From contig CAXHJY010001389.1 of the NCBI GenBank assembly GCA_964016885.1, positions 113,372 through 177,371 on the forward strand: a stretch of DNA of 64,000 nt. Reading direction: 5' to 3'. Under the pieces are notes generated by a model. The model made no database searches and had not been told where the DNA came from. It saw nothing but the letters and a program-made list of their open reading frames with translations. The stretch comes from Eledone cirrhosa (taxonomy: Eukaryota). A program made the translations under genes and the position numbers. Of this stretch, positions 30,555-63,990 are shown in pieces. Numbering within the stretch: the stretch's first letter is position 1; the number at the start of each line of letters is the position of its first letter.

Positions 30555-31470
30555 GAATACTGACTGATTTACAGGTGTATCTATAGCTCAATGCAGTTAC
30601 ACAGAGTTATTATCCATCAATGGGTTACACAGAGTTATTATACATTAAGATTTAAAGCATTTTCAAATTGACAACTGTTTCTACCTTTAGAGAGTGACAG
30701 GTTTCATCAGAGTGTATTAAAACACTATTAATTCATATAGAAAATCATTAGGAACATCATATACATAAAATCACTTTAATGTTTTTCTGTGTGAATTAAT
30801 AGTAATAGTTTTAATAAACTCCTATGAAAGTTGTGGCTCTATACATCTAGAAACAGATGTCAGTTTAAAATTGCTTTAAATCTTTGGTGTCATTTAAATT
30901 TTAATGTATTTATTGTGGGTGATCCCATTATTAGGAGGATCAAGCCAGTTAGCTGTGTTGGGAGCTATATTGCTCATAGTGGAACCATGTCTTTGGTTGG
31001 GATTTCATGGCTGCTGCATGCCTTTCCTAAGCACATATTTTATATATATATATATACAATACACTTTACACATATATATACACACATATATAAAAGACAC
31101 ACACACACACGCACACACACAATGAAATACCAATGACGGTTGGCAAATCACTGATGAGGGACTAATTTTATAATATGTAATCCATGTGCAACCATGCAGT
31201 ATTCTTCTCCCCTTGTTTTTCATATATATATATATATATATACATACACTAGCTGTTGCCCGATATAGGTTTGTTATTTTTATTGATTTATTACTTTAAA
31301 TCGAGTCAGGCAAACCATATTGTTTTAAATCAGTATTTTTTCAACCTAGCTAACTTGGTCATTTACAATTAGAACACATGTATACTTGTATCAGTGTTCT
31401 TCCCTCTCATATATTCAATTGTATATATATATATATATATATATATACATACAATTGAATATATATATAT

Positions 31471-37209: not shown

Positions 37210-38760
37210 TCAATGGGACCCTTGAGCTTCATGGAGTTTAGCTAACTCTTTGACGTCAGGCTGGATTTTCGTGAGCTGTAGCCGGAGATCTCCACGTGCA
37301 ACCACATTGTAGCGGTTGCGAGACTTACTATGCAGTCTAGAAACAACGCCAAACCCCCTCTCGACTAAGTATGAGCTAGGAAAAGGCAAAGCAAATCTCT
37401 TAGCCTCTGCTTGTAGGAGTGGAAATCGACGCTGAATTTCCTCTTGCATCCAAAAAAAGGGGTTCAGCTATTTTGAAAAATTTTATTTTGATAATGTCAT
37501 CCGTCTGATGTTCAATTAATTCTTCCTGAAAGTTAACATCGAAATCGTCGACGTTAACTATGAAGGGATCTGCTATCCACATTGGGATGTCCATCTGCAA
37601 AAGGTCGACAAACCGTTCTCTCATGTTGTCTTGTAGTGCACGGAGGTGCGCGGTATAAATTTGGAGTTGGTCATCGCTTACAATGTTTTGAACATTGGCG
37701 ACACTAGGAAAATTATAGAATTCCCGTCGACAAAGATTCTTTTCGATGACTTTCAATTTGGCCAGGAATATTTTCACAGCATTCCTTGCTTTAAACAAGG
37801 TGATCTTCTCCCCCTGCAAAGCTATAATGAGGCTATTGCATTTGTCGAAGATGTCGGCGAGGTAGGCGCAGTCTTGCCTCACATCGAGGTTTTTTTATAC
37901 AGTTCTGTGTTGCGTCCTCGAAGAAATTCAATGATAGAGTCGAACAGTTCAAAGAAGCGAGTAAAGCACTTGCCCTTTGAAAGCCACCTCACTTCAGTAT
38001 GAAGGAACAACTCGACGAATTCTTCGTCATTATCTTCGCACAGATGCCGGAAAATTCGTTCATTGAGGGCATGGCGTTTGATATAATTGATGACATCAAT
38101 GGCTACCTGCAAAGACTTGCTCAGCGGCTCGCTGAGTTTCTTCGCAAGTGTTGTCGATGAATGACACGATGAAGAGCAAATACAGATGGATTTTTCCCTC
38201 TTCAGAAGAGAGACGAAACCCTTATGTTGGCCGACCATTGATCTTGCGCCGCCCGTAGCACATGATACAATATTGTTAAGAGGTATCTCTTTTTCTTCGA
38301 GGTATCCCTTGACAGATTCAAAGATGGTGGCACCTTTAGTATCTGTGGTTAGATTCAGAGTGAAGAGAAGCTCCTCATGCATTTCGTTTTGGTGGAAAAA
38401 TCGCACGTATCCCAGTAGTAAGGACTGATTCCCGGAAAGTGTGCTTTCATCAAATTGCAAAGCCAATTGTGTCGATTTCAAGATGTTGCATAATTGTTGT
38501 TCAACATTTTCCGCCATTTCGTCGCTGCGTCTCCTTATTGAGTCGTTACTCAACGGAATACATTTCAAGGTCTTTAACGGGTTTTGATGTAGTACTGTTG
38601 AAAGATCTTCTGAGATGACAGGGGCTACCAATGTTTCACCCAAGGACTCCTTGCAAAGTAAACACATGGGTGACAGGTGGTTCGACGGCGATGGGATGAA
38701 TCCGAACCGTAAGTAATCAATGCTGTACTGCCTGCATTTTTTCTTCATTGCTGAGGCCAT
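37210..38760 (-). pseudogene. Buster/Charlie hAT transposase (ZBED5/FAM200/SCAND3-like), frameshifted
   Basis: KKCRQYSIDYLRFGF...PMCLLC (truncated BED finger), LQFDEST, CATGGA (the usual TDGA aspartate is lost), HTEVRWLSKG, FPSSYLVERGF. Split over three ORFs. Confidence 0.92.
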
Positions 38761-39498
38761 TTTCTGTTTATCGAATGTGTTTGGTAAAGTTACGCAAAGA
38801 TTTGCCTATATAAGCCTATAAACTTATGTATAAGGAACTTACTATAATGAGTCCTATTCCAGTATGATAAAGTTTTAAGTAATGTTCTGGGATAACACTT
38901 TGTAATAAACAAAACTGCAATGAAAAACACAAATACTGTCATTAATTAACCAAGTCGAGACAAGTTATATATGAAGATTAACCAGTCTTTTATGTAGGAA
39001 TAGTAATAACTTAGCTTGAGGGAATTAAGGTGGCAGACTCAATAAAGGATCAACGAGGCAACGAGTTCAAGAGAACTTAATGCAAGAATGACTAGTAATG
39101 TGTTATTTTGAAATGGAATTCATCAATTAGGCACGTAGTGATAAGACGCGATAATACTAAGTTAAGACATTACTTATTAGTCAGAGTTACTCAAATTATC
39201 GCCCTTACCTTAATGCATCACTGTGATATTCTTGTAATGGTGCTGCAATTATAATGGATGATTGTTGAAGACTACAAAAGCATTTCCTTAAACCCAAGGC
39301 TATAACAAGACTTGATTGTAGTATAAACAGTCAGTTTATATAGGAATAGCAACAACCTAGTTATAGAATAAATGATGTGGAAATGCAATGAAGATAAGAT
39401 GGGGTCAAGCAAACCGAATGTTAGTAAGAATGAGCTGAAGTATCAAGGTCAAGCTGATCACGGTGATGAACGGGTCAGTGAATAATGTTGCTCTTTTC

Positions 39499-40210: not shown

Positions 40211-40466
40211 AAAAAAAAAAATCTTTCAAATTTGATATTGCAGTATATTATATATAGTACTGTAATTCTCGCTTTACATCACCACTTGTGTTTAGTTTTA
40301 GTTTTTGCATTGGACTATATTTGTAATATGGTTCAAAATGTTATTCCCTTCCTTAGCAATTTTTACTTGATAATATTTACTTGATAATTTTCCTATGCTT
40401 TAATGTATGTATACTCCATATTCTTCTGAGTTTTTGGCTTGTATTGGCCGATAGTGCTTCTTATAG

Positions 40467-40520
40467 CTTTACTTGCCCTGATGAGTCCTTAATAGGACGA
40501 AACATTGTTGGCTAATAAAG
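40467..40520 (+). ncRNA. Type-I hammerhead ribozyme (PLE pLTR remnant)
   Basis: ctttacttgcc-CTGATGA-GTCCT taat AGGAC-GAAA-CATTG-TT-ggctaataaag. Stem I pairs 9/11, stem II is 5 bp, and AATAAA overlaps the 3' arm. Confidence 0.85.
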
Positions 40521-40557
40521 ACTTTTGATGTATTGAAGGCTTCTTTGGTTTATTTTC

Positions 40558-40618
<61 letters not shown>

Positions 40619-40804
40619 AATATATATATTACACACACACACATATATATATTTATATATATTTACATATACGTATGTATATAGCCATGCATTTATACAT
40701 TTGTATATATACATGCATTTATATTTAAGTGTGTAAGGTTATATATATATATATAAATGAAGTAACAGGAGGCTGGACTGGTGTAAATCCTTGAAAGGTT
40801 TATT

Positions 40805-40862
40805 ATACTATGATCATTTCAATGACCGGGTTCCATATGAATTCGGTGATATCATCAGGTAT
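40805..40862 (-). ncRNA. Type-I hammerhead, family B
   Basis: Reverse-complement copy of 41762-41819. Confidence 0.8.
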
Positions 40863-41761
40863 TGGAATATAAAAAGGAATATGTAAAAAGCCATGGGTCC
40901 GAAAAACCATGAGTCCGAGAAACCAGAGACAGAGAGGGCGGCTGACCAACTAGCTTCACAGCCAGCCACCCTCAAAGTGTTGGCAACCGAAAACTACCAG
41001 TGAATATCTGGTAAGGGGGCGCGTTAATAAACCCCTAATGTGTGATTTAAAAGTATTCGTGGTATAGACGATGGCCTGTCGAAATTGTGGGGTTCCCGCT
41101 AGCGATCCCGGGGCCATTGTTAACTACGTTCCTAGAGTACTCGGAGAAATTAATTTCCATTTCTTTCGCTGGACGATACCACTCGAGACTGGCTGACTCA
41201 CGGTGGTGGGTGTGCTGGCTGGGACTCCCAATCGAAATCTTTACTCTATATCCCATCCTAATATCTTATCGAGTTAAACATTTTTTTCATACAAGACTCT
41301 CTCCGTAAGCTCGTTAAATAAATAAATCTCGCTACCTCTATTTTTCAATTTACCATTTTGCAATATAATATTTTTAATTTAATTTATTTCATCCTATAAC
41401 TGGCAACATAAGTTTAGCGTTCCAATCTTTGGTTCACACATTAGACCATACAGACACCCACTATAGATTCTTTGGGTAGCATTTTTTTTTTCGCGGCATT
41501 TTCTAACATGAATGTAGTTTGACCCTTACACTACACTTCTTTCTCCCTTTCTTTCCTCCCCCTCTTCTTTGACGGAGTGGTGGTAGTACATGATAGGCCT
41601 GCGCCCCCTTACCAGATATTCACTGGTAGTCTTCGGTTGCCAACACTTTGAGGGTGGCTGGCTGTGAAGCTAGTTGGTCAGCCGCTCACTCTGTCTCTGG
41701 TTTCTCGGACTCATGGCTTTTCGGACCCATGGCTTTTTACATATTCCTTTGTTATATTCCA

Positions 41762-41819
41762 ATACCTGATGATATCACCGGATTCATATGGAACCCGGTC
41801 ATTGAAATGATCATAGTAT
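41762..41819 (+). ncRNA. Type-I hammerhead, family B
   Basis: ATAC-CTGATGA-[tatcACCGGattcatatggaacCCGGTcatt]-GAAA-TGATCA-TA-GTAT. Palindromic stem-loop III (UGAUCA), AUA cleavage site, AATAAA follows. Confidence 0.82.
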
Positions 41820-42011
41820 AATAAACGTTTCAAGGATTTACACCAGTCCAGCCTCCTGTTATTTCATTTATAATTAACTCCGTATTCGCACCACCAACTA
41901 CACAAACGAAGATGGGTGAACTGCATTGCGTTGAGTACTCTTCACAATATTACACCAGGATTGACCATACGGAATGACCAGTTCTATCCAGTGGTGAACC
42001 AACAAACCTTA

Positions 42012-42072
<61 letters not shown>

Positions 42073-42411
42073 CATTTATATTGTACATTTTAACCATTCT
42101 GCTCTGATGATACAGTGGTCACAGCATTTGATAATTGAGTTTTGCAAATAGTTGTAAATTTGCACGTAGCATAACTAGGCTGTACAACCACCGTGGAAAC
42201 ATTTGTAAGCACACGGAATAAATTACCTTTTTATGATGTCTACCTGTTATTATTCATTCTTCATATATATATATATATATATATATATAACCTTACACAC
42301 TTAAATATAAATGCATGTATATATACAAATGTATAGATGCATAGCTATATACATACGTATATGTATGTATGTATGTAGATTTATATATATAGATATGTAT
42401 GTATGTAGATT

Positions 42412-42471
<60 letters not shown>

Positions 42472-42667
42472 TCGTTTCTGAATTTGTTTAGCAAGATTCT
42501 TTATCTGAAAACCTGCGTTGAAACCGATATTGTTATACTTTGGGAGGGTCATGTTGCCAATAAGAAACACACGCACTTCAGTTTATTATAATAAATTTAT
42601 AAATTTATAAATTTATAAATTTCCAGTTGGTTGCTTGGTTCCACAACCAGATGATTGTTTATATATT

Positions 42668-42710
42668 CTCAAAGTTCTTTCGTCACACATTATGTGACCT
42701 CTTCAGTGAC
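42668..42710 (-). ncRNA. Type-I hammerhead, family A, intact core
   Basis: GUCA-CUGAAGA-G-GUCACA uaaug UGUGAC-GAAA-GAAC-UU-UGAG. Confidence 0.8.
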
Positions 42711-42899
42711 TGGGGATTCTTTTCTTTGTTTTTGTGCCTCTCTTTTGTTCTGTCCTACGCCATTTTGTTTTTTTATGTGTGTTGTGTGCTTATTTTGCGT
42801 ATGTGTTATACCCGGGTGTCTGTGTGTGTTTATATTTGTTTATTTACATGTTACTGGTTGGTTGTTTGTTCTATGTGCGTGTGTGTTTTCATTTTGTCC

Positions 42900-45800: not shown

Positions 45801-46611
45801 TGTGTGTGTGCGTATGTTGTTACTTTTGTTTTTGTTTTTGAGGCTCCAACGTAATTTTGTAAATGATTTTTCTATCTCTGACAAACATTTAATCATATTT
45901 ACCTTATTAAATGTGGCATACTTAGGTGGTTGTTGTAATACTGATAATTCATCAGAGTCGACCGTAGTGTTGCCGTATATATTTGTGTTGTTGTTGTTGA
46001 ATTCATCTGTTAATGAGATGTCGGCCATATTTATACCGTCAATTTTGTCGGGATATCTATTGATATTCTCTAAAGTATCTTGATTTAGTTTTATCTGTTT
46101 GAGCCACTTTAGTTTCTTGTTAAAGTGCTTGTCACATTCTTGAACAATTTACTTTTCTTCAGGACGTATAAGGTTTATAAATATAATTTTTCTCTTGGTG
46201 TGGTGATCTTACTTATTTCTTGTAATAGGTTACGCTTATGTTTTTCTTGATGACTTAATTCTCTATAAATCTTCTTTTTCATGTTTAGAATTAGTGTTCG
46301 TTTTAGCCTATCTGCTTGCTTTTTGGTGAGCTGTAATCTTCTTACATCGGTGTTGATGGTGTTGGTGTAAATTCAGGACGAGGCACATTCTTTTATGAAG
46401 TGTAGTTGTCGAGATGTTATTGTTTTTCGAGACAACAGAACATGGTGGTTTTCAGTATCTTGTTAGCCTGGCTAAGGCTTACGATATTTCGTTTCTGAAT
46501 TTGTTTAGCAAGATGCTTTATCTGAAAACGTGTGTTGAAACCGATATTGTTATACTTTGGGAGGGTCACATTTAGGAATTTATAAATTTCTGGTTGGTTG
46601 GTTGGTTCCAC
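42900..46611 (-). pseudogene. PLE polyprotein: N-terminal domain, RT, Cys-rich linker and GIY-YIG endonuclease, disrupted
   Basis: YGLRKDHK...PTRPVCG, DVVSLYPSID, AIGVSIAGDIANLFM, RYVDDI, PCIDKKCIIC, NVVYSIRC...YIGETARSIGERINEH. Contains frameshifts and stops, plus a low-complexity N/T/H insert at about 45250-45840. Confidence 0.93.
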
Positions 46612-46634
46612 AACCAGATGATTGTTTATATATT

Positions 46635-46677
46635 GTCAAAGTTCTTTCCTCACACATTCTGTGACCACTTCAGTGAC
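46635..46677 (-). ncRNA. Hammerhead, family A, decayed (A9U)
   Basis: GUCA-CUGAAGU-GGUCACA gaaug UGUGAG-GAAA-GAAC-UU-UGAC. Confidence 0.65.
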
Positions 46678-46896
46678 TGGGGATTCTTTTCTTTGTTTTT
46701 GTGCCTCTCCTTTGTTCTGTCCTACGCCATCTTGTTTTTGTGTGTGTGTTGTGTGCTTAGATTGCGCATGTGTTACATCCGGGTGTCTATGTGTGTTTAT
46801 ATATATATATGTATATATGTATGTATGTATGTAGATTTATATATATATATATGTGTGTGTGTATGTATGTATATTTATATATATATATATATGTAG

Positions 46897-46960
<64 letters not shown>

Positions 46961-47172
46961 TTTCTGAATTTGTTTAGCAAGATCCTTTATCTGAAAACGT
47001 GTGATGAAACTGATATTGTTATGCTTTGGGAGAGTCATGTTGCCAATAAGAAACACACGCACCAGTTGCTTTCACTCCAATTTATTATAAATTAAATTTA
47101 TAAATTTAAGAATTTATAAATTTCCGGTTGGTTGGTTGGTTGGTTCCATAACCGGACGGTTGTTCATATATT

Positions 47173-47215
47173 GTCAAAGTTCTTTCATCACACATTCTGT
47201 GACCTTTTCAGTGAC
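47173..47215 (-). ncRNA. Hammerhead, family A, decayed (G8A)
   Basis: GUCA-CUGAAAA-GGUCACA gaaug UGUGAU-GAAA-GAAC-UU-UGAC. Confidence 0.65.
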
Positions 47216-49184
47216 TAGGGATTCTTTTCTTTGTTTTGTGCCTCTCCTTTGTTCTGTCCTACGTCATCTTGTTTTTGTGTGTGTTGTGTGCTTAGTTTGC
47301 GCATGTGTTACATCCGGGTCTCTGTGTGTGTTTTTATTTGTTTATTTATATGTTTATTTACATGTTACTGGTTGGTTGTTTGTTCTATGTGTGTGTGTGT
47401 TTTCATTTTGTCCTTAATTGTAAGTTGTGATGTTGCTATTCCATTCATGTTTTCTATTTAATTTTGGTTGGAGTTCATTTATGTTTATTGCCTCTGTGAT
47501 TTGTCTAAACATTGCGTGTTTTCTGTGTGTAGATTCTATTTTTATTTCTATGTTCTCTAATTTGCACTTATGTTCTATTTTAGCATGTTGGTGGAGATTT
47601 GATGAATCTTTTTTATCTTAAAGTTCTCGCCAGTGTTCATTTAACCGTTCTCCTATACTACGAGCTGTCTCACCTATGTACACTATATTTTTATCTCTAC
47701 ATTGTCCTTCAGTACATCTTATGCTATATACTACATTTCTAGTTTTACAGTTAATATGGGGGCTTAGTTTACAGACTATGCATTTCTTATCTATAGAGGG
47801 AGGTCTTTGAAAAGGGTATGTATTGCTAATAAGTGTTTTTATGGACGTACCTGGTCTTTCTACTATCTTAATATTAATTTTATCTAGGGCCCTTCTAAAT
47901 TTGTAAGCTAATTCACCTCTAGGGGTTGTATTGATGAACATTACACTCTGGTATTTATTGCTATCATACCATGAGTTTAATCTATTAACCTTATTCCTAG
48001 TTCTTTCTATTCTATTCCAAAATTTGCTCCTATACAAGGGGCAGGTCTCTTTTGTATCATTATTTACCATTTTTTCCCATTTGGTTCTGGCTCCTCTATA
48101 TACTCTGATTTTATCTCTCTGTAACCAGAGAACTGCATACGGTGGATGAAGTGTTGTATGTGTCTCTCTAGTTCTTTGGGGTTGCACATGCGGGACACGT
48201 TTCTCATCACCCATACCAAATCTGCAATCAGTATGTTGATTTTGGTGTGATCCGAAAGAGCTGAGTTTCGGTGGATCAGATATTTGGAAGTCATGGGTTT
48301 GGCATAATGGGAATGGAGGATTTGTTTTTTGTTATTAATGGTTTCTAACCAGAGCTCTGTGTCTAGTACAGGTAATCGATGGTTGGGGTGTTTGCTTGGG
48401 TAGTCTATAGAAACTCTAATACTCTGGTGGATGGAGTTAGCTATTTGCTGAATGCTATCCATGGTGTTTTTCTCTAATTCCTGACTGTTCTCTAGTGGGG
48501 GTGTTTTTACTACGATGTTTATATCATCAACTTAGTGGGAGTACATTATCAGGGTTAAGAGGTTGCTGTCTTCTAATTCTTCTTTAAGTTTAAGTTTAAG
48601 TCTATTGTCCCACCATACCATGAATAGGTTAGCTATGTCACCTGCAATGCTAACACCAATGGCTGCTCCCTCCTCTTGGGCATATGTTTTTCCATTAAAT
48701 TTGAACATATGTTCCTTAAGGGTTAATTTTATACTGGCCCCCACCGCATGTGCAATCATTTTCTTTAGTTCATCGTGGTTTTCGGGGGTCCGTATGGTTC
48801 TGGTCCACCCGTTCCATTTTTTTGTGTAGGTTTTCTTGGCCATTGGATAATGGTAGGTGGTCTGCCTCTTGCTGGTCTTGTAGGGCACAGGTTGTTAAAA
48901 TCATATGTATCTAGATAATCATTACTATAGGTAAGTTTAAGTAGGAGTCCCACGGAATCCAACAGAATTCAACATTTCTCTTACTGATCATTTCTACGCA
49001 TTTCTCCACAGCAAAATCCACGTCAATGGATGGATATAGGGACACAACACCCATACTACCTATTATACAGTTTGTTAGGTCCCTAGATCGGTTACTTTCG
49101 CTGATTCTGCTGAGGAGGTCCTCCGTGCTGTCACATATATCTGGGAACAAAGGAGAGGCACAAAAACAAAGAAAAGAATCCCCA

Positions 49185-49227
49185 GTCACTGAAGAGGTCA
49201 CAGAATGTGCGAGGAAAGAACTTTGAC
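49185..49227 (+). ncRNA. Hammerhead, family A, in the inverted pLTR
   Basis: GUCA-CUGAAGA-GGUCACA gaaug UGCGAG-GAAA-GAAC-UU-UGAC; stem II weakened. Confidence 0.72.
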
Positions 49228-49529
49228 AATATATGAACAACCGTCCGGTTATGGAACCAACCAACCAACCGGAAATTTATAAATTCTTAAATTTATAAAT
49301 TTAATTTATAATAAATTGGAGTGAAAGCAACTGGTGCGTGTGTTTCTTATTGGCAACATGACCCTCCCAAAGCATAACAATATATATATATATATATATA
49401 TATAAATATATAAATCTACATACATACATATATACATACATTTATATTTAAGTGTGTAAGGATGTTGATATGATCTATGTCTTCTTTTTTTGGTAAGGAG
49501 AACATTAACATCAATAACTAACGCCGGCC

Positions 49530-50075: not shown

Positions 50076-50410
50076 TGTGTATGTTCACCATCATTGCTTC
50101 TTCTTGTCATTTCTGTTGAAGGAGTCCTTACTTTCATTCTCTTTGATTTCTTTTGATTTTCTTTTATCTCCCTAGGGAATTCGTTGACAAGCTTCTTTTA
50201 TTTATTTTCTTCGTTTTCTTCATTCAAATCACTGACTGTCTAAGGGACGTACAAATATGACTTATAAAACTTACCAAACTAAAGGGGCTTCTAGCGCCCT
50301 CAAAGTTTCAAACGCCCCCTTACTGCATAACGCCTCCTTGGAGCTACGAAACGCCCCCCGGGGTGGCATATGCCCCCCCCCCCTCCCCGTTGGGAACCTT
50401 TAATATAGAA

Positions 50411-50740
50411 CATAACAAAGCAGAGACACAAAATAAGACATCAGTCACTGAAAGGCTCACAGAATGTGAGACGAAAGAGCTGTGACCCCCCCCCCCCCCA
50501 GTGACTGATATCCTATTTGGTGTCTCTCCTGTGTTATGTTATATACCATGGAAGTTGATTTTGTCGTGGAAACCCATGACCTCCAAATATCTGATCCACC
50601 GAACCTCAGCCATTTCGGATAACATGAAATTCAACATACTGATTGCGGATTTAGTAAGAGTGGTGAGGAACGTGTCCCGCATGTGCAATCCTAAAGAATT
50701 AGTGAGACACATACAACACTTCATCCACCGCATGCAGTTC
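50411..50740. mobile_element. Rest of the fold-back PLE split by the hAT: pLTR piece, poly-C, mirrored pLTR/RT arm
   Basis: 50499-50572 is the reverse complement of 36559-36592 joined to 50411-50450. 50573-50740 is the reverse complement of about 35697-35855. Confidence 0.85.
50444..50486 (+). ncRNA. Degenerate hammerhead, family A-related
   Basis: GUCA-CUGAAAG-GCUCACA gaa UGUGAGAC-GAAA-GAGC-UG-UGAC; core and cleavage site are altered. Confidence 0.5.
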
Positions 50741-51168: not shown

Positions 51169-51225
<57 letters not shown>

Positions 51226-51339
51226 TAAGAGGAATTCCAACTTTGTCTGATTTACTCGTTTTATTTACAATCCTTTAAAATATATATAATGGTATTATAA
51301 TGAAATAGTATGATAGAATATTAAATTCTAAGTGTTAAT

Positions 51340-51378
51340 TGAACAAGTACTTTCATGCTTTCGCAATCTTCAGGTTCA
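51340..51378 (-). ncRNA. Minimal type-I hammerhead, mirror copy
   Basis: Reverse complement of 51452-51490. Confidence 0.85.
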
Positions 51379-51451
51379 TGATATGTGGTGACAGTCGAGT
51401 TTGCAATTTTCAACTGTGGAAAATTGCAAACTCGACTGTCACCACATATCA

Positions 51452-51490
51452 TGAACCTGAAGATTGCGAAAGCATGAAAGTACTTGTTCA
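51452..51490 (+). ncRNA. Minimal type-I hammerhead (39 nt)
   Basis: UGAAC-CUGAAGA-uUGC gaaa GCAu-GAAA-GUAC-UU-GUUCA. Stem I is 5 bp, stem II has a GNRA loop, loop III is the palindrome GUAC. Confidence 0.85.
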
Positions 51491-51849
51491 ATTAACACTT
51501 AGAATTTAATATTCTATCATACTATTTCATTATAATACCATTATATATATTTTAAAGGATTGTAAATAAAACGAGTAAATCAGACAAAGTTGGAATTCCT
51601 CTTATTAATATAATCTTCTATACACAATCATACACACCCGTGTATATTTACCTATCTATATCTATATATATATATATATATATATATACGTATAAATTAC
51701 TTCGAGTATTTGTAGTTAATTACCGACACTTCAGTATACAGGATAGAGCACTCGACGAAGTGCACAGGTGGGTCTGTTTACTCCAGAGTATATTTATAAA
51801 CATGAAGTACAAATCAACAGGTTAAGATTAACTTCGTTCAATCATAGTC

Positions 51850-51908
51850 GCTGTTATATATATTTCGGTGATAACCATTATGCAACAGCTATTACCTCAT
51901 CAGACAGC
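51850..51908 (-). ncRNA. Type-I hammerhead
   Basis: GCUGU-CUGAUGA-GGUAAUAGC...GUUAUCACC-GAAA-UAUAUA-UA-ACAGC. Perfect stem I and palindromic stem-loop III. Confidence 0.87.
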
Positions 51909-53020: not shown

Positions 53021-53104
53021 ATTACTATATAATGCTCAGTATTTATACTTTGAGCTTGCTTTAATTGCAGGGTACCTATATGAGTTAATAACTCTATATT
53101 TTAT

Positions 53105-55196
<2,092 letters not shown>

Positions 55197-55248
55197 TATA
55201 ATGAAATGACAGGAGGCTGGATTTGTGTAAATCCTTGAAAGGTTTATT

Positions 55249-55306
55249 ATACTATGATCATTTCAATGACCGGGTTCCGTATGAATCCGGTGGTATCATC
55301 AGGTAT
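55249..55306 (-). ncRNA. Type-I hammerhead, family B
   Basis: Mirror of 55421-55478 with one substitution in stem II. Confidence 0.8.
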
Positions 55307-55420
55307 TCGAAATATAATACGTGAATGTAATAGGTAAAATCCATGGGGCTTCGAGACCCGAGGGCGACCGCTATTCTGTTCCTTCAATTTTACGTATTAC
55401 ATTCACGTATTATATTTCGA

Positions 55421-55478
55421 ATACCTGATGATATCACCGGATTCATACGGAACCCGGTCATTGAAATGATCATAGTAT
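55421..55478 (+). ncRNA. Type-I hammerhead, family B
   Basis: ATAC-CTGATGA-[tatcACCGGattcatacggaacCCGGTcatt]-GAAA-TGATCA-TA-GTAT, then AATAAA. Confidence 0.82.
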
Positions 55479-55674
55479 AATAAACCTTTCAAGGATTTAC
55501 ACAAATCCAGCCTCCTGTCATTTCATTATAATATTTAACTCCGTAATAGCACCACCAACTACAAAAACAAAGACGGTTGAACTGCTTTACGTTGAGTACT
55601 CTCTATATTATTGCATTACGATTGACCATACGGAATAGACCATCTCTATACAGTGGTGAACCTCAAACCTGAAT

Positions 55675-57516
<1,842 letters not shown>

Positions 57517-58420
57517 TAATATAAGATCAAAAGATGGTTAAAGGAGTTCCTTGTATTTTTATTATGCGCATTTCAAAAACAAACATCATCATGCAATAAT
57601 ATTTGTGTTTTCATCAGATAAAACAGGAGAACATGATATGAAGGCTAAAAAACACTTGTGGATAGTGCAGTTTTAAATCAACATATGAAAAGTGGTTTTA
57701 GATTGATGTGTGATATTGGGAAAAATATTTATTTAGAGAGGGGGGGGGGGGGTGGAAAGAATGAAAAGGGAAGGAGATGAGAGGGAGAGATGGGTGATAG
57801 AGAGAAAGAGATAGTTTTTATAACGGAGAGGAGATATATTGTTTTACATAGAGAGGTTGAAAACCGTTGGAAGATAATGTATAAATTAAAAATTTTGAAA
57901 ATAAACGATGGGAATTTATGTATGAAGATAGAGAGAAAAAATAATAATTGTGGATGAATATTCGAACGTCAAAAAAAGAAATGTATGTATTGTGGCAATT
58001 TCAAAATTAACGAAGAGAAAAATTATTAAGGTTTGTGTGTAGAAGGATTTGAGAAAAAATAATGTGAAGTTAAAGTTTGTATATTGAAGGAATTGATAAT
58101 ATATGCGAATAAAGAGTTAATATGTATTAATAATGAGTTCGTTGATGGGGAGAAAAAAATAATAAATTAAGGATGAAATTGAGATTAAAAAGATTTATGA
58201 TAGAGAGAAAAAAATAATAATGATTGCGGATGAATATTCTAACGTCAAAACAACAAAATGTATATGTTATGATTTTACAAGGTGAAGATAGATGAGGGTA
58301 ATGAGTAAACAAGTATTATAGAGTGTATAATGCCCTTTAAAGTAAGGTAGATGGGTATATTTTTAAAGAGGTGTATGTATATGTGCCTTTGAGAAAAGAT
58401 TCTAAATTGATAAAGAATTG
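57517..58420 (-). mobile_element. Degenerate island, probably a PLE 3' end
   Basis: Unique island between (TA)n fields with a hammerhead near its 3' end. Internal direct repeat at about 57935-57990 and 58207-58267. No clear protein motif. Confidence 0.5.
57557..57623 (-). ncRNA. Type-I hammerhead
   Basis: UUUUAU-CUGAUGA-AAACACAAAUA...UGUUUGUUUUU-GAAA-UGCGCA-UA-AUAAAA. Stem I is 6 bp, stem II is long, and UGCGCA is palindromic. Confidence 0.87.
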
Positions 58421-60031
<1,611 letters not shown>

Positions 60032-60302
60032 TATATTTAGAAACACACAGATACATGCGGACACACACATATATACATGAATGCATCCGCACCCAACTTA
60101 CTCATACTTCTACCCTTCTTCACCACCTCTTCTGCGGCCTCGATATGAATACCCCCTCCGCCTCTGTGGTATTTTCTTCGTGGTTATAAGAGGCTTAGCT
60201 CTGTTTCTCGACCGTTATATCGCGTGACTATCTCCCCCTCCGCCTTTTGGGATTCTTTCTCACGTCGTGTAGAAGCGTTCTTGAGACTAGTAAAATGAGG
60301 TA

Positions 60303-60392
60303 TCCTCTTGATAAGTCGGCAGACCTCGCAGGGACTCTATATCCTTATGATATATTGTTTTTGTTTATGCCACGAAACTACGTAGTCGAGGA
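60303..60392 (+). ncRNA. Type-I hammerhead with U3-A8 core variant and extended stem II
   Basis: UCCUC-UUGAUAA-GUcGGCA...(59-nt domain II)...UGCCAC-GAAA-CUACGUAG-UC-GAGGA. GUC cleavage site and palindrome CUACGUAG. Lies in the island 60032-60462. Confidence 0.75.
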
Positions 60393-60462
60393 ATTTAGGA
60401 GCAGTTTAGGTATGATACATTTTATTACTAATTATATCTAAATGTTTCTTCTCTCTTCATTA

Positions 60463-62420
<1,958 letters not shown>

Positions 62421-63990
62421 AGATCTCCTTAATGAAAGCTCCATAGACCTCATCATGTACTCTCGTTATGTAGACGATATCAATATAGTTATAAGAACAC
62501 CCCCACTAGAGAGCACTAACAAGTTTGATTTAGAACGTAGCACGATGGAAAGCATCCAGCAGATAGCTAATTCCCATACACCAGAGTATAACTGTAACTA
62601 TAGACTTCCCTTCCAAACACCCTAACAATAGACTACCTGTATTAGACACAGAACTCTGGATTAACACTATAGACGAGAGAGCCCAAATTCTCCACTCACA
62701 CTATGCTAAACCCATGGCCTCCAAATACCTGATACTCAAAAACTCAGCAATGTCCAGTAGTGCTAAGTTTAATATTCTGATCGCAGATTTGGTACGAGTG
62801 ATGAAGAATGTGTCCAGCATGTGCGACCCAACAGAAATGGAAGGACACATCCAACACTTCATCAACCGCATGCAGTTCTCTGGCTACAACCAAAGAGACA
62901 GAGTCAGAGTATACGAAGGAGCCATGGAAAAAGTATAAGACCCTCATAGAACTGGACATGAAAGGAATTTGCCCACTATACAGGAGCAAATCATGGAATA
63001 GCTTAGATAGGGCTAGACATAAGATAGGGAAGGCCACATCATGGTTACGACAACCAGAGATATCAGAGTGTGTTTGTGGACGCCACCCCTGGAGGGAAAT
63101 TAGCTAACCAGTGTAGAAAGGCCCTGAGAAAGACCCACTTAAAAATAAAGGTGGTAGAAAAGCCAGGAACCACCATAAAATCCCTGATCAGCAAAACCTA
63201 CCCTTTTAAGAAAACCCACTGTACCAATAGGAAATGTATCATATGTAAGGTGAACCCCCGGATAAACTGTAAAACTAGAAACGTAGTCTATAGCATAAGA
63301 TGTACAGAGGGTACTTGCAGAAACACGACAACAACATACATAGGTGAGACAGCTCGTAGCATAGGTGAAAGGATAGACCAACACTGGGGGGAACTAAAAG
63401 GACGAAAAAACGGGTCAGTACTATACGAACATGCTAGACAACATCATGACGGTAACATAGACAACATAGAAATTAGAATAATATCTAAACATAGGAATGA
63501 CCCAGCAGATAGGCAAATCAGAGAGGCCAGTGAAATAGAAATTAGAAGACCAAAGCTAAACAGAAAGAATGAGTGGAACAACAACAACACCCAAACAAAC
63601 AACACTGACCTAAGAGAAGTATAAATAAATAAGTAAATTAAATTAAATAAAAAAAAAAAAAAAAAAATAAAAAAAATAAAAAAAAAATAAAATAAGATAA
63701 ATAAATACATACACAAGCACATAAACACACACTAGTCACCCAGCAGACACAACACTATACACACTAGTCACACATCACACATAACACTATACACACACGC
63801 AAGCGCATGCGCAAAGAAGACAAATTAAAATAAGATAAACAAACAAGCAAATAAATAAATAAATATATAGACAGACTGAACAAAAAAAAAAAAAAAATGG
63901 CGTAGACATACAACACAACAGGAGGAACAATGAATATAACACCACTGACGATGTTGCAGATGTGCAACGAAAGATTTATGTAAACTATAT
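62421..63990 (+). mobile_element. 5'-truncated Penelope-like element, diverged relative of family A
   Basis: [12 protein letters not shown]...HFINRMQFSGY...CTNRKCIIC...NVVYSIRC...YIGETARSIGERIDQH...RQIREA, with frameshifts. The 3' UTR contains a hammerhead. Confidence 0.93.
63942..63981 (+). ncRNA. Type-I hammerhead in the PLE 3' UTR
   Basis: cCA-CUGACGA-U-GUUGCA gaug UGCAAC-GAAA-GAUU-UA-UG. Perfect 6-bp stem II, weak stem I. Confidence 0.72.

Follow-up and report, generated by a model that had tools for sequence, protein, structure and literature searches.

Inverted arms of a Penelope-type element inserted in TA repeats of Eledone cirrhosa: defined outer ends, variable inner joints and candidate insertion mechanisms

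A short non-coding piece of a Penelope-type element lies inside a TA repeat at positions 55197-55676 of the DNA analysed here, a stretch of 64,000 nucleotides from Eledone cirrhosa hereafter called the window. It consists of an inverted arm, a spacer, a direct arm and a one-sided tail (Table 1), and belongs to a family, termed B, found only twice in the window by masked self-BLAST. Both copies share their outer ends and differ at their inner joints, a layout that two-ended target-primed reverse transcription by a Penelope-like element (PLE) protein with RT and GIY-YIG domains could have produced; we regard this reading as the most likely of those considered, yet evenly balanced between right and wrong. 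The window, a piece of animal DNA, abounds in TA microsatellites and contains several decayed retroelements and a large 31-bp tandem satellite of strong strand skew (about 300-30600, about 29 kb). A repeat search of the whole window was swamped by this satellite and by the TA runs, and masked self-BLAST was used instead.

Table 1. Positions, in window coordinates, of family B and of the elements compared with it.
Feature	Position	Strand	Remarks
Copy 1 inverted arm	40752-41022	-	264/271 identical to 41601-41872, 1 gap
Copy 1 spacer	41023-41600	not assigned	578 bp, non-coding; T-rich like the sense arm, a weak hint of orientation
Copy 1 direct arm and tail	41601-42013	+	arm to 41872; tail 41873 to about 42013
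Copy 1 hammerhead-like motif	41762-41819	+	own motif scan
Family A copy 2 (A2)	46958-49383	-	5'-truncated RT/GIY-YIG element 46958-49149; inverted arm 49145-49383
Family C (51.2-kb palindrome)	51218-51660	+	arms 51218-51411 and 51419-51612; hammerhead-like motif 51452-51490
Copy 2 inverted arm	55197-55340	-	without tail; outermost 4 nt, TATA, common to the TA array
Copy 2 mirror motif	about 55249-55306	-	one helix II change; missed by the scan
Copy 2 spacer	55341-55386	-	46 bp; probably the inverted arm continuing into upstream family sequence
Copy 2 direct arm	55387-55530	+	5'-truncated 3' end of the element; 142/144 identical to 55197-55340, ungapped (pairwise alignment)
Copy 2 type-I hammerhead-like motif	55421-55478	+	own motif scan; predicted cut after 55474
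Copy 2 one-sided tail	55531-55676	+	140-146 nt; AAACCT ends at 55670; TA array next

The arms of copy 2 had been recognized in the initial annotation with a length of 136 bp, a figure that stops at the first inner mismatch; the arms are real and their true length is 144 bp. The left junction of this copy is an imperfect TA array, and TA arrays flank both sides of both copies. The spacers do differ, as was reported, with 46 bp in copy 2 versus 578 bp in copy 1, and the latter gave no other match in the 64-kb window (masked self-BLAST) and no PLE protein match. In copy 1, the tail measures 137-141 nt with AAACCT ending at 42009, and alternating TA starts 4 nt past this motif (6 nt in copy 2). 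Since the tails are identical at 121 of 145 aligned bases and differ at 24, the two copies stem from different source elements. Beside TA arrays of the window, a short AT-rich unit is repeated (40655-40739, 42290-42374, 49428-49461), an inverted pair of which (94%) brackets copy 1. Decayed transposase-like frames, the longer one without Pfam match, lie on the minus strand at 37400-38805 and are presumably hAT/Buster-like. Long TA arrays at 53050-62420 switch between C- and G-interrupted segments, the GC skew changing sign, which suggests inverted array blocks.

The initial annotation placed the start of the inverted arm at the same position in both copies, and this was borne out: each arm begins at the same TATA, right after CAT(T), within about 3 nt, the precision being limited by an indel of 1-2 nt that sits exactly at the outer arm end. 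Likewise, both tails end at the same AAACCT, with 4-6 nt further to the TA array. The shared region holds seven TATA/ATAT runs in each copy. By rough arithmetic, two starts falling within about 3 nt would have a chance of a few per cent if starts were uniform over ~280 nt, and the chance of a shared start would be about 1 in 7 if starts were confined to these runs; for a sample of n=2, we read the coincidence as suggestive rather than strong. The outer arm end is supported as a defined site within a PLE-like layout, and the TATA at the arm ends could be part of either element or array. With its arms unlike at some positions and its layout repeated in a second copy, family B is unlikely to be an assembly artefact.

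The sense strand of family B is set as plus by a type-I hammerhead-like motif, and the arms accordingly stand head to head with their 3' ends outward. This motif combines a 4-bp helix I, a long bulged helix II with U-U at its base and a short palindromic helix III, and it is identical at 57 of 58 positions between copies, above the 121/145 of the tail. Our own scan for type-I hammerhead cores gave seven matches in the window, including three of the four B arms and both arms of the 51.2-kb palindrome; it is incomplete, as it misses the family A motif and an Rfam match at 40462. In Rfam itself, no hammerhead lies within B among the best 150 of 202 matches at E<=1, nor among the four matches of copy 2 at E<=10; the miRNA matches were rejected as hairpin or TA artefacts below gathering scores. 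The G10.1-C11.1 pair at the base of helix II is replaced by U-U in families B and C, and the predicted MFE fold of the B motif as a monomer differs from the hammerhead fold. Because folding of the tails and hammerhead regions gave a significant z-score in none of seven segments (the B tail having no significant or conserved predicted fold, z about -0.9), no structured RT start site is claimed. Scanning bacterial and archaeal genomes for an exact motif yielded 0 matches, which is uninformative for an animal repeat. Further hammerhead-like motifs occur near TA arrays at 40462-40532 (+), 51850-51908 (-) and 57557-57623 (-), without inverted partner in self-BLAST; the first matches Rfam Hammerhead_HH9 with E 0.0018, below the gathering score.

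Regarding coding content, neither B copy has an ORF of at least 100 aa apart from TA-repeat frames, and six-frame translation and tblastn revealed no coding remnant. With relatives of the family A RT as queries (the best 120 of 132), tblastn gave one weak match in copy 1 (E 0.03), none in copy 2 and 72 in the family A control. Family B is hence not filed as an autonomous EN+ Penelope-like element, the predicted frames including no RT + GIY-YIG ORF, a result that truncation would also give. In both copies, an inverted 5'-truncated copy lies beside the 5' end (orientation being taken from the hammerhead strand), the repeat carries the predicted hammerhead motif (core and three helices in our own scan), the insertion is in (TA)n and the tail is one-sided. 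In our proposal, family B corresponds to the 3' end (pLTR region), with its hammerhead, of a truncated or non-autonomous Penelope-type retroelement and would work like a PLE-mobilised pLTR with a putative ribozyme and a presumed mobilising protein. Identity with a retrozyme was rejected, masked self-BLAST of the window having revealed no head-to-tail tandem B copies.

Two other families of the window can be compared with B. The 51.2-kb palindrome shares the layout, as the initial annotation stated, with a hammerhead-like motif of its own, yet it belongs to a different family (C, without BLAST match to B): its arms are identical at 194 of 194 positions, with a 7-nt loop and a one-sided tail of 40-50 nt, and this perfect palindrome may be an assembly artefact. 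The A2 element has a body of ~2.2 kb and an arm of about 240 bp that is without the ~55-nt tail. Family A is Neptune-like by its motifs (cf. the part of PMC8557442 available); Pfam gave a GIY-YIG match for family A copy 1 (A1), one of five proteins being matched, and the closest named relatives of the family A RT, among the best 120 of 132 matches, are labelled Octopus vulgaris (69% identity). Recently active PLEs have been catalogued in an octopus genome, according to the accessible part of PMC13282606. A second coding PLE family, 5'-truncated and about 70% identical to family A, lies at 62448-63624 (+). At 50404-50545, a family-A-like hammerhead region has 47-bp inverted arms in the opposite, tail-to-tail arrangement and turns just after the ribozyme, at a C run. 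An old head-to-head palindrome at 30647-30884, with arms about 75% identical and, by eye, a decayed hammerhead-like core per arm, is probably a fifth inverted PLE end.

Throughout the four elements of these three families (both B copies, C and A2), the inverted arm is without the tail, and arms separated by spacers of 578 bp and 2.1 kb are still 97-98% alike. Moreover, 4-5 nt of alternating TA are common to element and TA array at all four arm ends (per-site chance 0.05-0.10). With the two family A 3' ends included, the overlap is found in five of six by a strict count, in which the A2 3' end is a miss, its 4-nt overlap existing only through a mismatch; the per-site chance is then 0.03-0.10 and the product over the three independent families 2e-4. 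Joints with TA arrays may show such overlaps in general: at the only 5'-truncated end open to this comparison, 5 nt are likewise common to element and array when A1 serves as reference (none with A2).

The arms group by copy and not by side. Among the 149 columns of the family B quartet, 119 are invariant, 24 set copy against copy, 6 are singleton or other and none sets left against right; 18 of the 24 copy-grouping columns lie in a poorly aligned inner stretch and 6 in a clean block, to which the sites quoted earlier for within-copy likeness belong, confirming that likeness. Clustering of left arms with left arms, named in the initial annotation as the pattern that would contradict it, has no column in this quartet. 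Similarly, in the family A quartet (70 gap columns set aside), six sites group by copy, none otherwise, and 15 are singleton or other; compared with its own direct copy, the A2 arm has 5/238 differing sites, and compared with A1, 11/174 and 17/224. Sites within one quartet are linked. The alignments support arms that would have been made per insertion or per lineage and not inherited as a fixed left terminus, and arm pairing by copy does not choose among insertion mechanisms. Hence, of the earlier proposal that each arm was copied from its own element from a defined start, the defined outer end and the per-insertion arms stand; second-strand copying from the own element is not established, because the same pattern is predicted if a single source RNA gave rise to two cDNAs, or if gene conversion acted later. 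The direct pLTRs of A1 (42471-42830, 46488-46797) differ from each other at 11/174 sites plus a ~65-bp gap and, unlike the inverted arms, are no closer to each other than to the A2 arm (11/174); direct pLTRs may have arisen by another route, or may be of greater age.

The inner joints are variable: A2 has a 5-nt overlap with one mismatch, C its 7-nt loop and copy 2 no visible overlap, and the arm of copy 1 ends at a self-complementary GCGC. When the spacer of copy 2 was anchored to the upstream sequence of copy 1, the inverted fit reached p<0.05 in 7 of 10 scoring/reference settings and the direct fit in 0 of 10 (in the first run, p=0.005 inverted vs 0.73 direct). This test is scoring-dependent (p 0.001-0.19); the inverted fit drops to 3 of 10 settings once the 7 nt beside the arm are removed, and unanchored local alignment of the spacer to copy 1 was not significant either way (p=0.62 and 0.53). 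The inverted arm of copy 2 seems to extend beyond the point where the direct copy ends at its 5' side, by up to 46 nt. If real, such family sequence absent from the direct copy argues against copying from the inserted DNA, and a simple fold-back cannot supply it; an identical spacer would nevertheless result if the centre of a fold-back palindrome had later been trimmed by deletion on one side. The left product of copy 2 is longer than the right one and the direct product of A2 is much the longer, and two independent cDNAs allow either.

Two-ended target-primed reverse transcription would proceed as follows. The endonuclease would cut both strands of the TA array; the right-hand 3'-OH would prime a cDNA at an outer start site, corresponding to the tail end, and the left-hand 3'-OH a second cDNA at an inner start, the TATA that lies about 140 nt further upstream; the template of this second cDNA would be the same RNA, or else a sister RNA from the same source locus. 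Both cDNAs would stop early at variable points and join head to head before repair fills in, the inverted arm being then a second first-strand cDNA and not a second strand. Extension of both cut ends would, by geometry, yield a head-to-head inversion with a one-sided tail. LINE-1 twin priming likewise starts a cDNA inside the RNA from the second target end and yields a 5' inversion with a short-overlap joint; we know of no L1 inversion with sequence duplication or a fixed inner start, whereas family B duplicates 144-271 bp from a fixed site. The apparent fit of the copy 2 spacer to inverted upstream family sequence favours two separately primed cDNAs, and the overlap at the inner joint of A2, the TA overlaps at the four arm ends and the existence of a coding RT and GIY-YIG element with the same layout also speak for them. 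Against them stand the scoring dependence of the spacer test, the joint of copy 2 without overlap and the TA overlap at a 5' end, as well as the lack of a B ORF linking the family to a PLE protein. Two B copies cannot settle the mechanism.

In a fold-back second strand, a single cDNA would be primed at the tail end, and its 3' end would snap back or jump and copy toward the tail, the endonuclease then cutting at a target-like TATA and the end being joined to the left flank; self-priming (PMC3846280) and 'EN-mediated resolution' (PMC8557442) are kindred ideas in the portions of these papers available. We find this explanation plausible, yet less likely than not. The perfect 194-bp palindrome of family C with its short loop fits it better than two-ended priming, the A2 arm lies wholly inside its own direct copy with the overlap at the joint, and the GCGC at the arm end of copy 1 is in line with it; a TA-preferring nuclease would also place ends at TATA/ATAT. 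Palindromes at inverted junctions have been reported (PMC3846280, in the part available), and 5-9-bp repeats are able to drive snap-back in yeast mutants (PMC7999016). However, fold-back needs an extra later deletion to account for the 46 nt by which the copy 2 arm seems to exceed the direct copy, and the cut that it invokes is not required, as the tail boundary is an RT start in vitro (PMC11167929).

The elements could also have been shaped after insertion, gene conversion evening the arms, microsatellite slippage or TA-guided end joining trimming the ends as far as TA motifs and central deletions setting the spacer. Arm gene conversion and palindrome instability are documented in general, and both the TA overlap at a 5' end and the imperfect array at the left junction of copy 2 agree with such a history, which we nevertheless consider quite unlikely: it accounts neither for the tailless inverted arm of all four elements nor for the fact that one and the same TA run, out of seven, forms the end of both B arms, and arms with 578-bp and 2.1-kb spacers have stayed 97-98% alike. 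The arms might also be inherited termini, fixed ends of a master element, a reading for which the resemblance of TA-flanked inverted repeats to TA-targeting TIR elements speaks. It is very improbable: inherited fixed termini are ruled out by the 0 left-with-left columns in the B and A quartets, the arm length differs (144 vs 271) and a hammerhead-like motif is present. MITE/TIR or DIRS termini were rejected since the right repeat is not terminal, the length is variable and the arms group by copy.

According to the available text of PMC8557442 and PMC8969392, the layout standard for PLEs combines an inverted, 5'-truncated copy with a tail of 30-40 bp on one side only; that of PMC3846280 deals with self-priming, palindromes at junctions and inverted pLTRs of shorter length. 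Like EN+ PLEs (PMC8557442, and Pen2a_Av in PMC3846280, each in part), family B has the inverted 5'-truncated copy, the one-end tail, the hammerhead in the repeat and a (TA)n target, for which an insertion bias is described in Neptune, Naiad and Hydra, and neither has a readable target-site duplication (PMC8557442, PMC3846280). In contrast to the 30-40 bp of described EN+ PLE tails (PMC8557442), the B tails reach about 140 nt (137-146 nt over both copies); described tails overlap the ORF start, whereas no frame is conserved between the B tails and up to about 1 kb of copy 1 is without ORF. Metazoan PLE minimal type-I hammerheads have the same short helix I, long bulged helix II and small palindromic helix III, with a conserved G10.1-C11.1 in place of the U-U of B, and hammerhead pairs on opposite strands, 100-700 bp apart, were noted (PMC4209133, in part). 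Axolotl HHR_Amex2 provides an example of a U-U variant (PMC7229834). With the non-LTR retrozymes of metazoans, B shares the lack of coding sequence, a type-I hammerhead and a probable dependence on PLE proteins for movement; retrozymes form head-to-tail tandem repeats of 150-450 bp, whereas the arms of B face head to head in a single unit that, in copy 1, is longer (PMC7229834, available part).

Of particular relevance, and in favour of two-ended priming, is PAc (Poseidon of Anolis carolinensis), which in vitro cuts and extends both target strands, starting at two sites that bound the tail with no strand difference, and which is a predicted dimer (PMC11167929, whose main text does not discuss inverted copies). 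PAc and B have in common two defined end points bounding the tail, an AT-rich target and an AC-rich stretch close to the inner of these points, which reads CACCACCAACTACA in both B copies (PMC11167929). The comparison would link the in vitro reaction to the genomic inversions. By contrast, PAc starts are reported as non-homologous to the cut DNA, which counts against two-ended priming of B, whose ends overlap the array by 4-5 nt, and the B tail, unlike that of PAc, is without significant or conserved fold. A more specific version for (TA)n-targeting PLEs, which we hold to be doubtful, is that the inverted pLTR would be a second first-strand cDNA from the other cut end and that both starts would be set where the TA end of the target pairs with 4-5 nt of AUAU/UAUA in the element RNA, the tail length being the distance between these sites (about 45, 55 and 140 nt in the three families) and B a non-coding, hammerhead-bearing passenger family.

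The layout of family B is already described for PLEs, and its 'fixed outer end' is their known tail signature: because the tail boundary is an RT start in vitro (PMC11167929), the end that had been taken for a readable trace of the second-strand mechanism is a published boundary and not a new trace. The new details are the long tail and the 4-5-nt TA overlaps at all four arm ends; in the PLE literature searched (the main text of PMC11167929 and the available portions of the other papers), neither two-ended priming for inverted pLTRs, nor TA overlaps at tail boundaries, nor tails near 140 nt are stated. The origin of tandem and inverted PLE ends is still called undefined in the accessible text of PMC8557442, and the second-strand steps of PLEs still await validation (PMC11167929). 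A cheap genomic test of two-ended priming versus fold-back is offered by short inverted copies lying in TA arrays, the discriminating features being arm sequence absent from the direct copy and ends on TA motifs. The window provides one suggestive case and a table of four elements, and the whole genome would supply many more; the copy 2 locus alone adds only the long tail and a testable hint. If true, pairing of the TA ends with the element RNA would join the two-strand result obtained in vitro to the genomic inversions, would differ from the homology-independent start of PAc and would give family B a tail about four times longer than those described.
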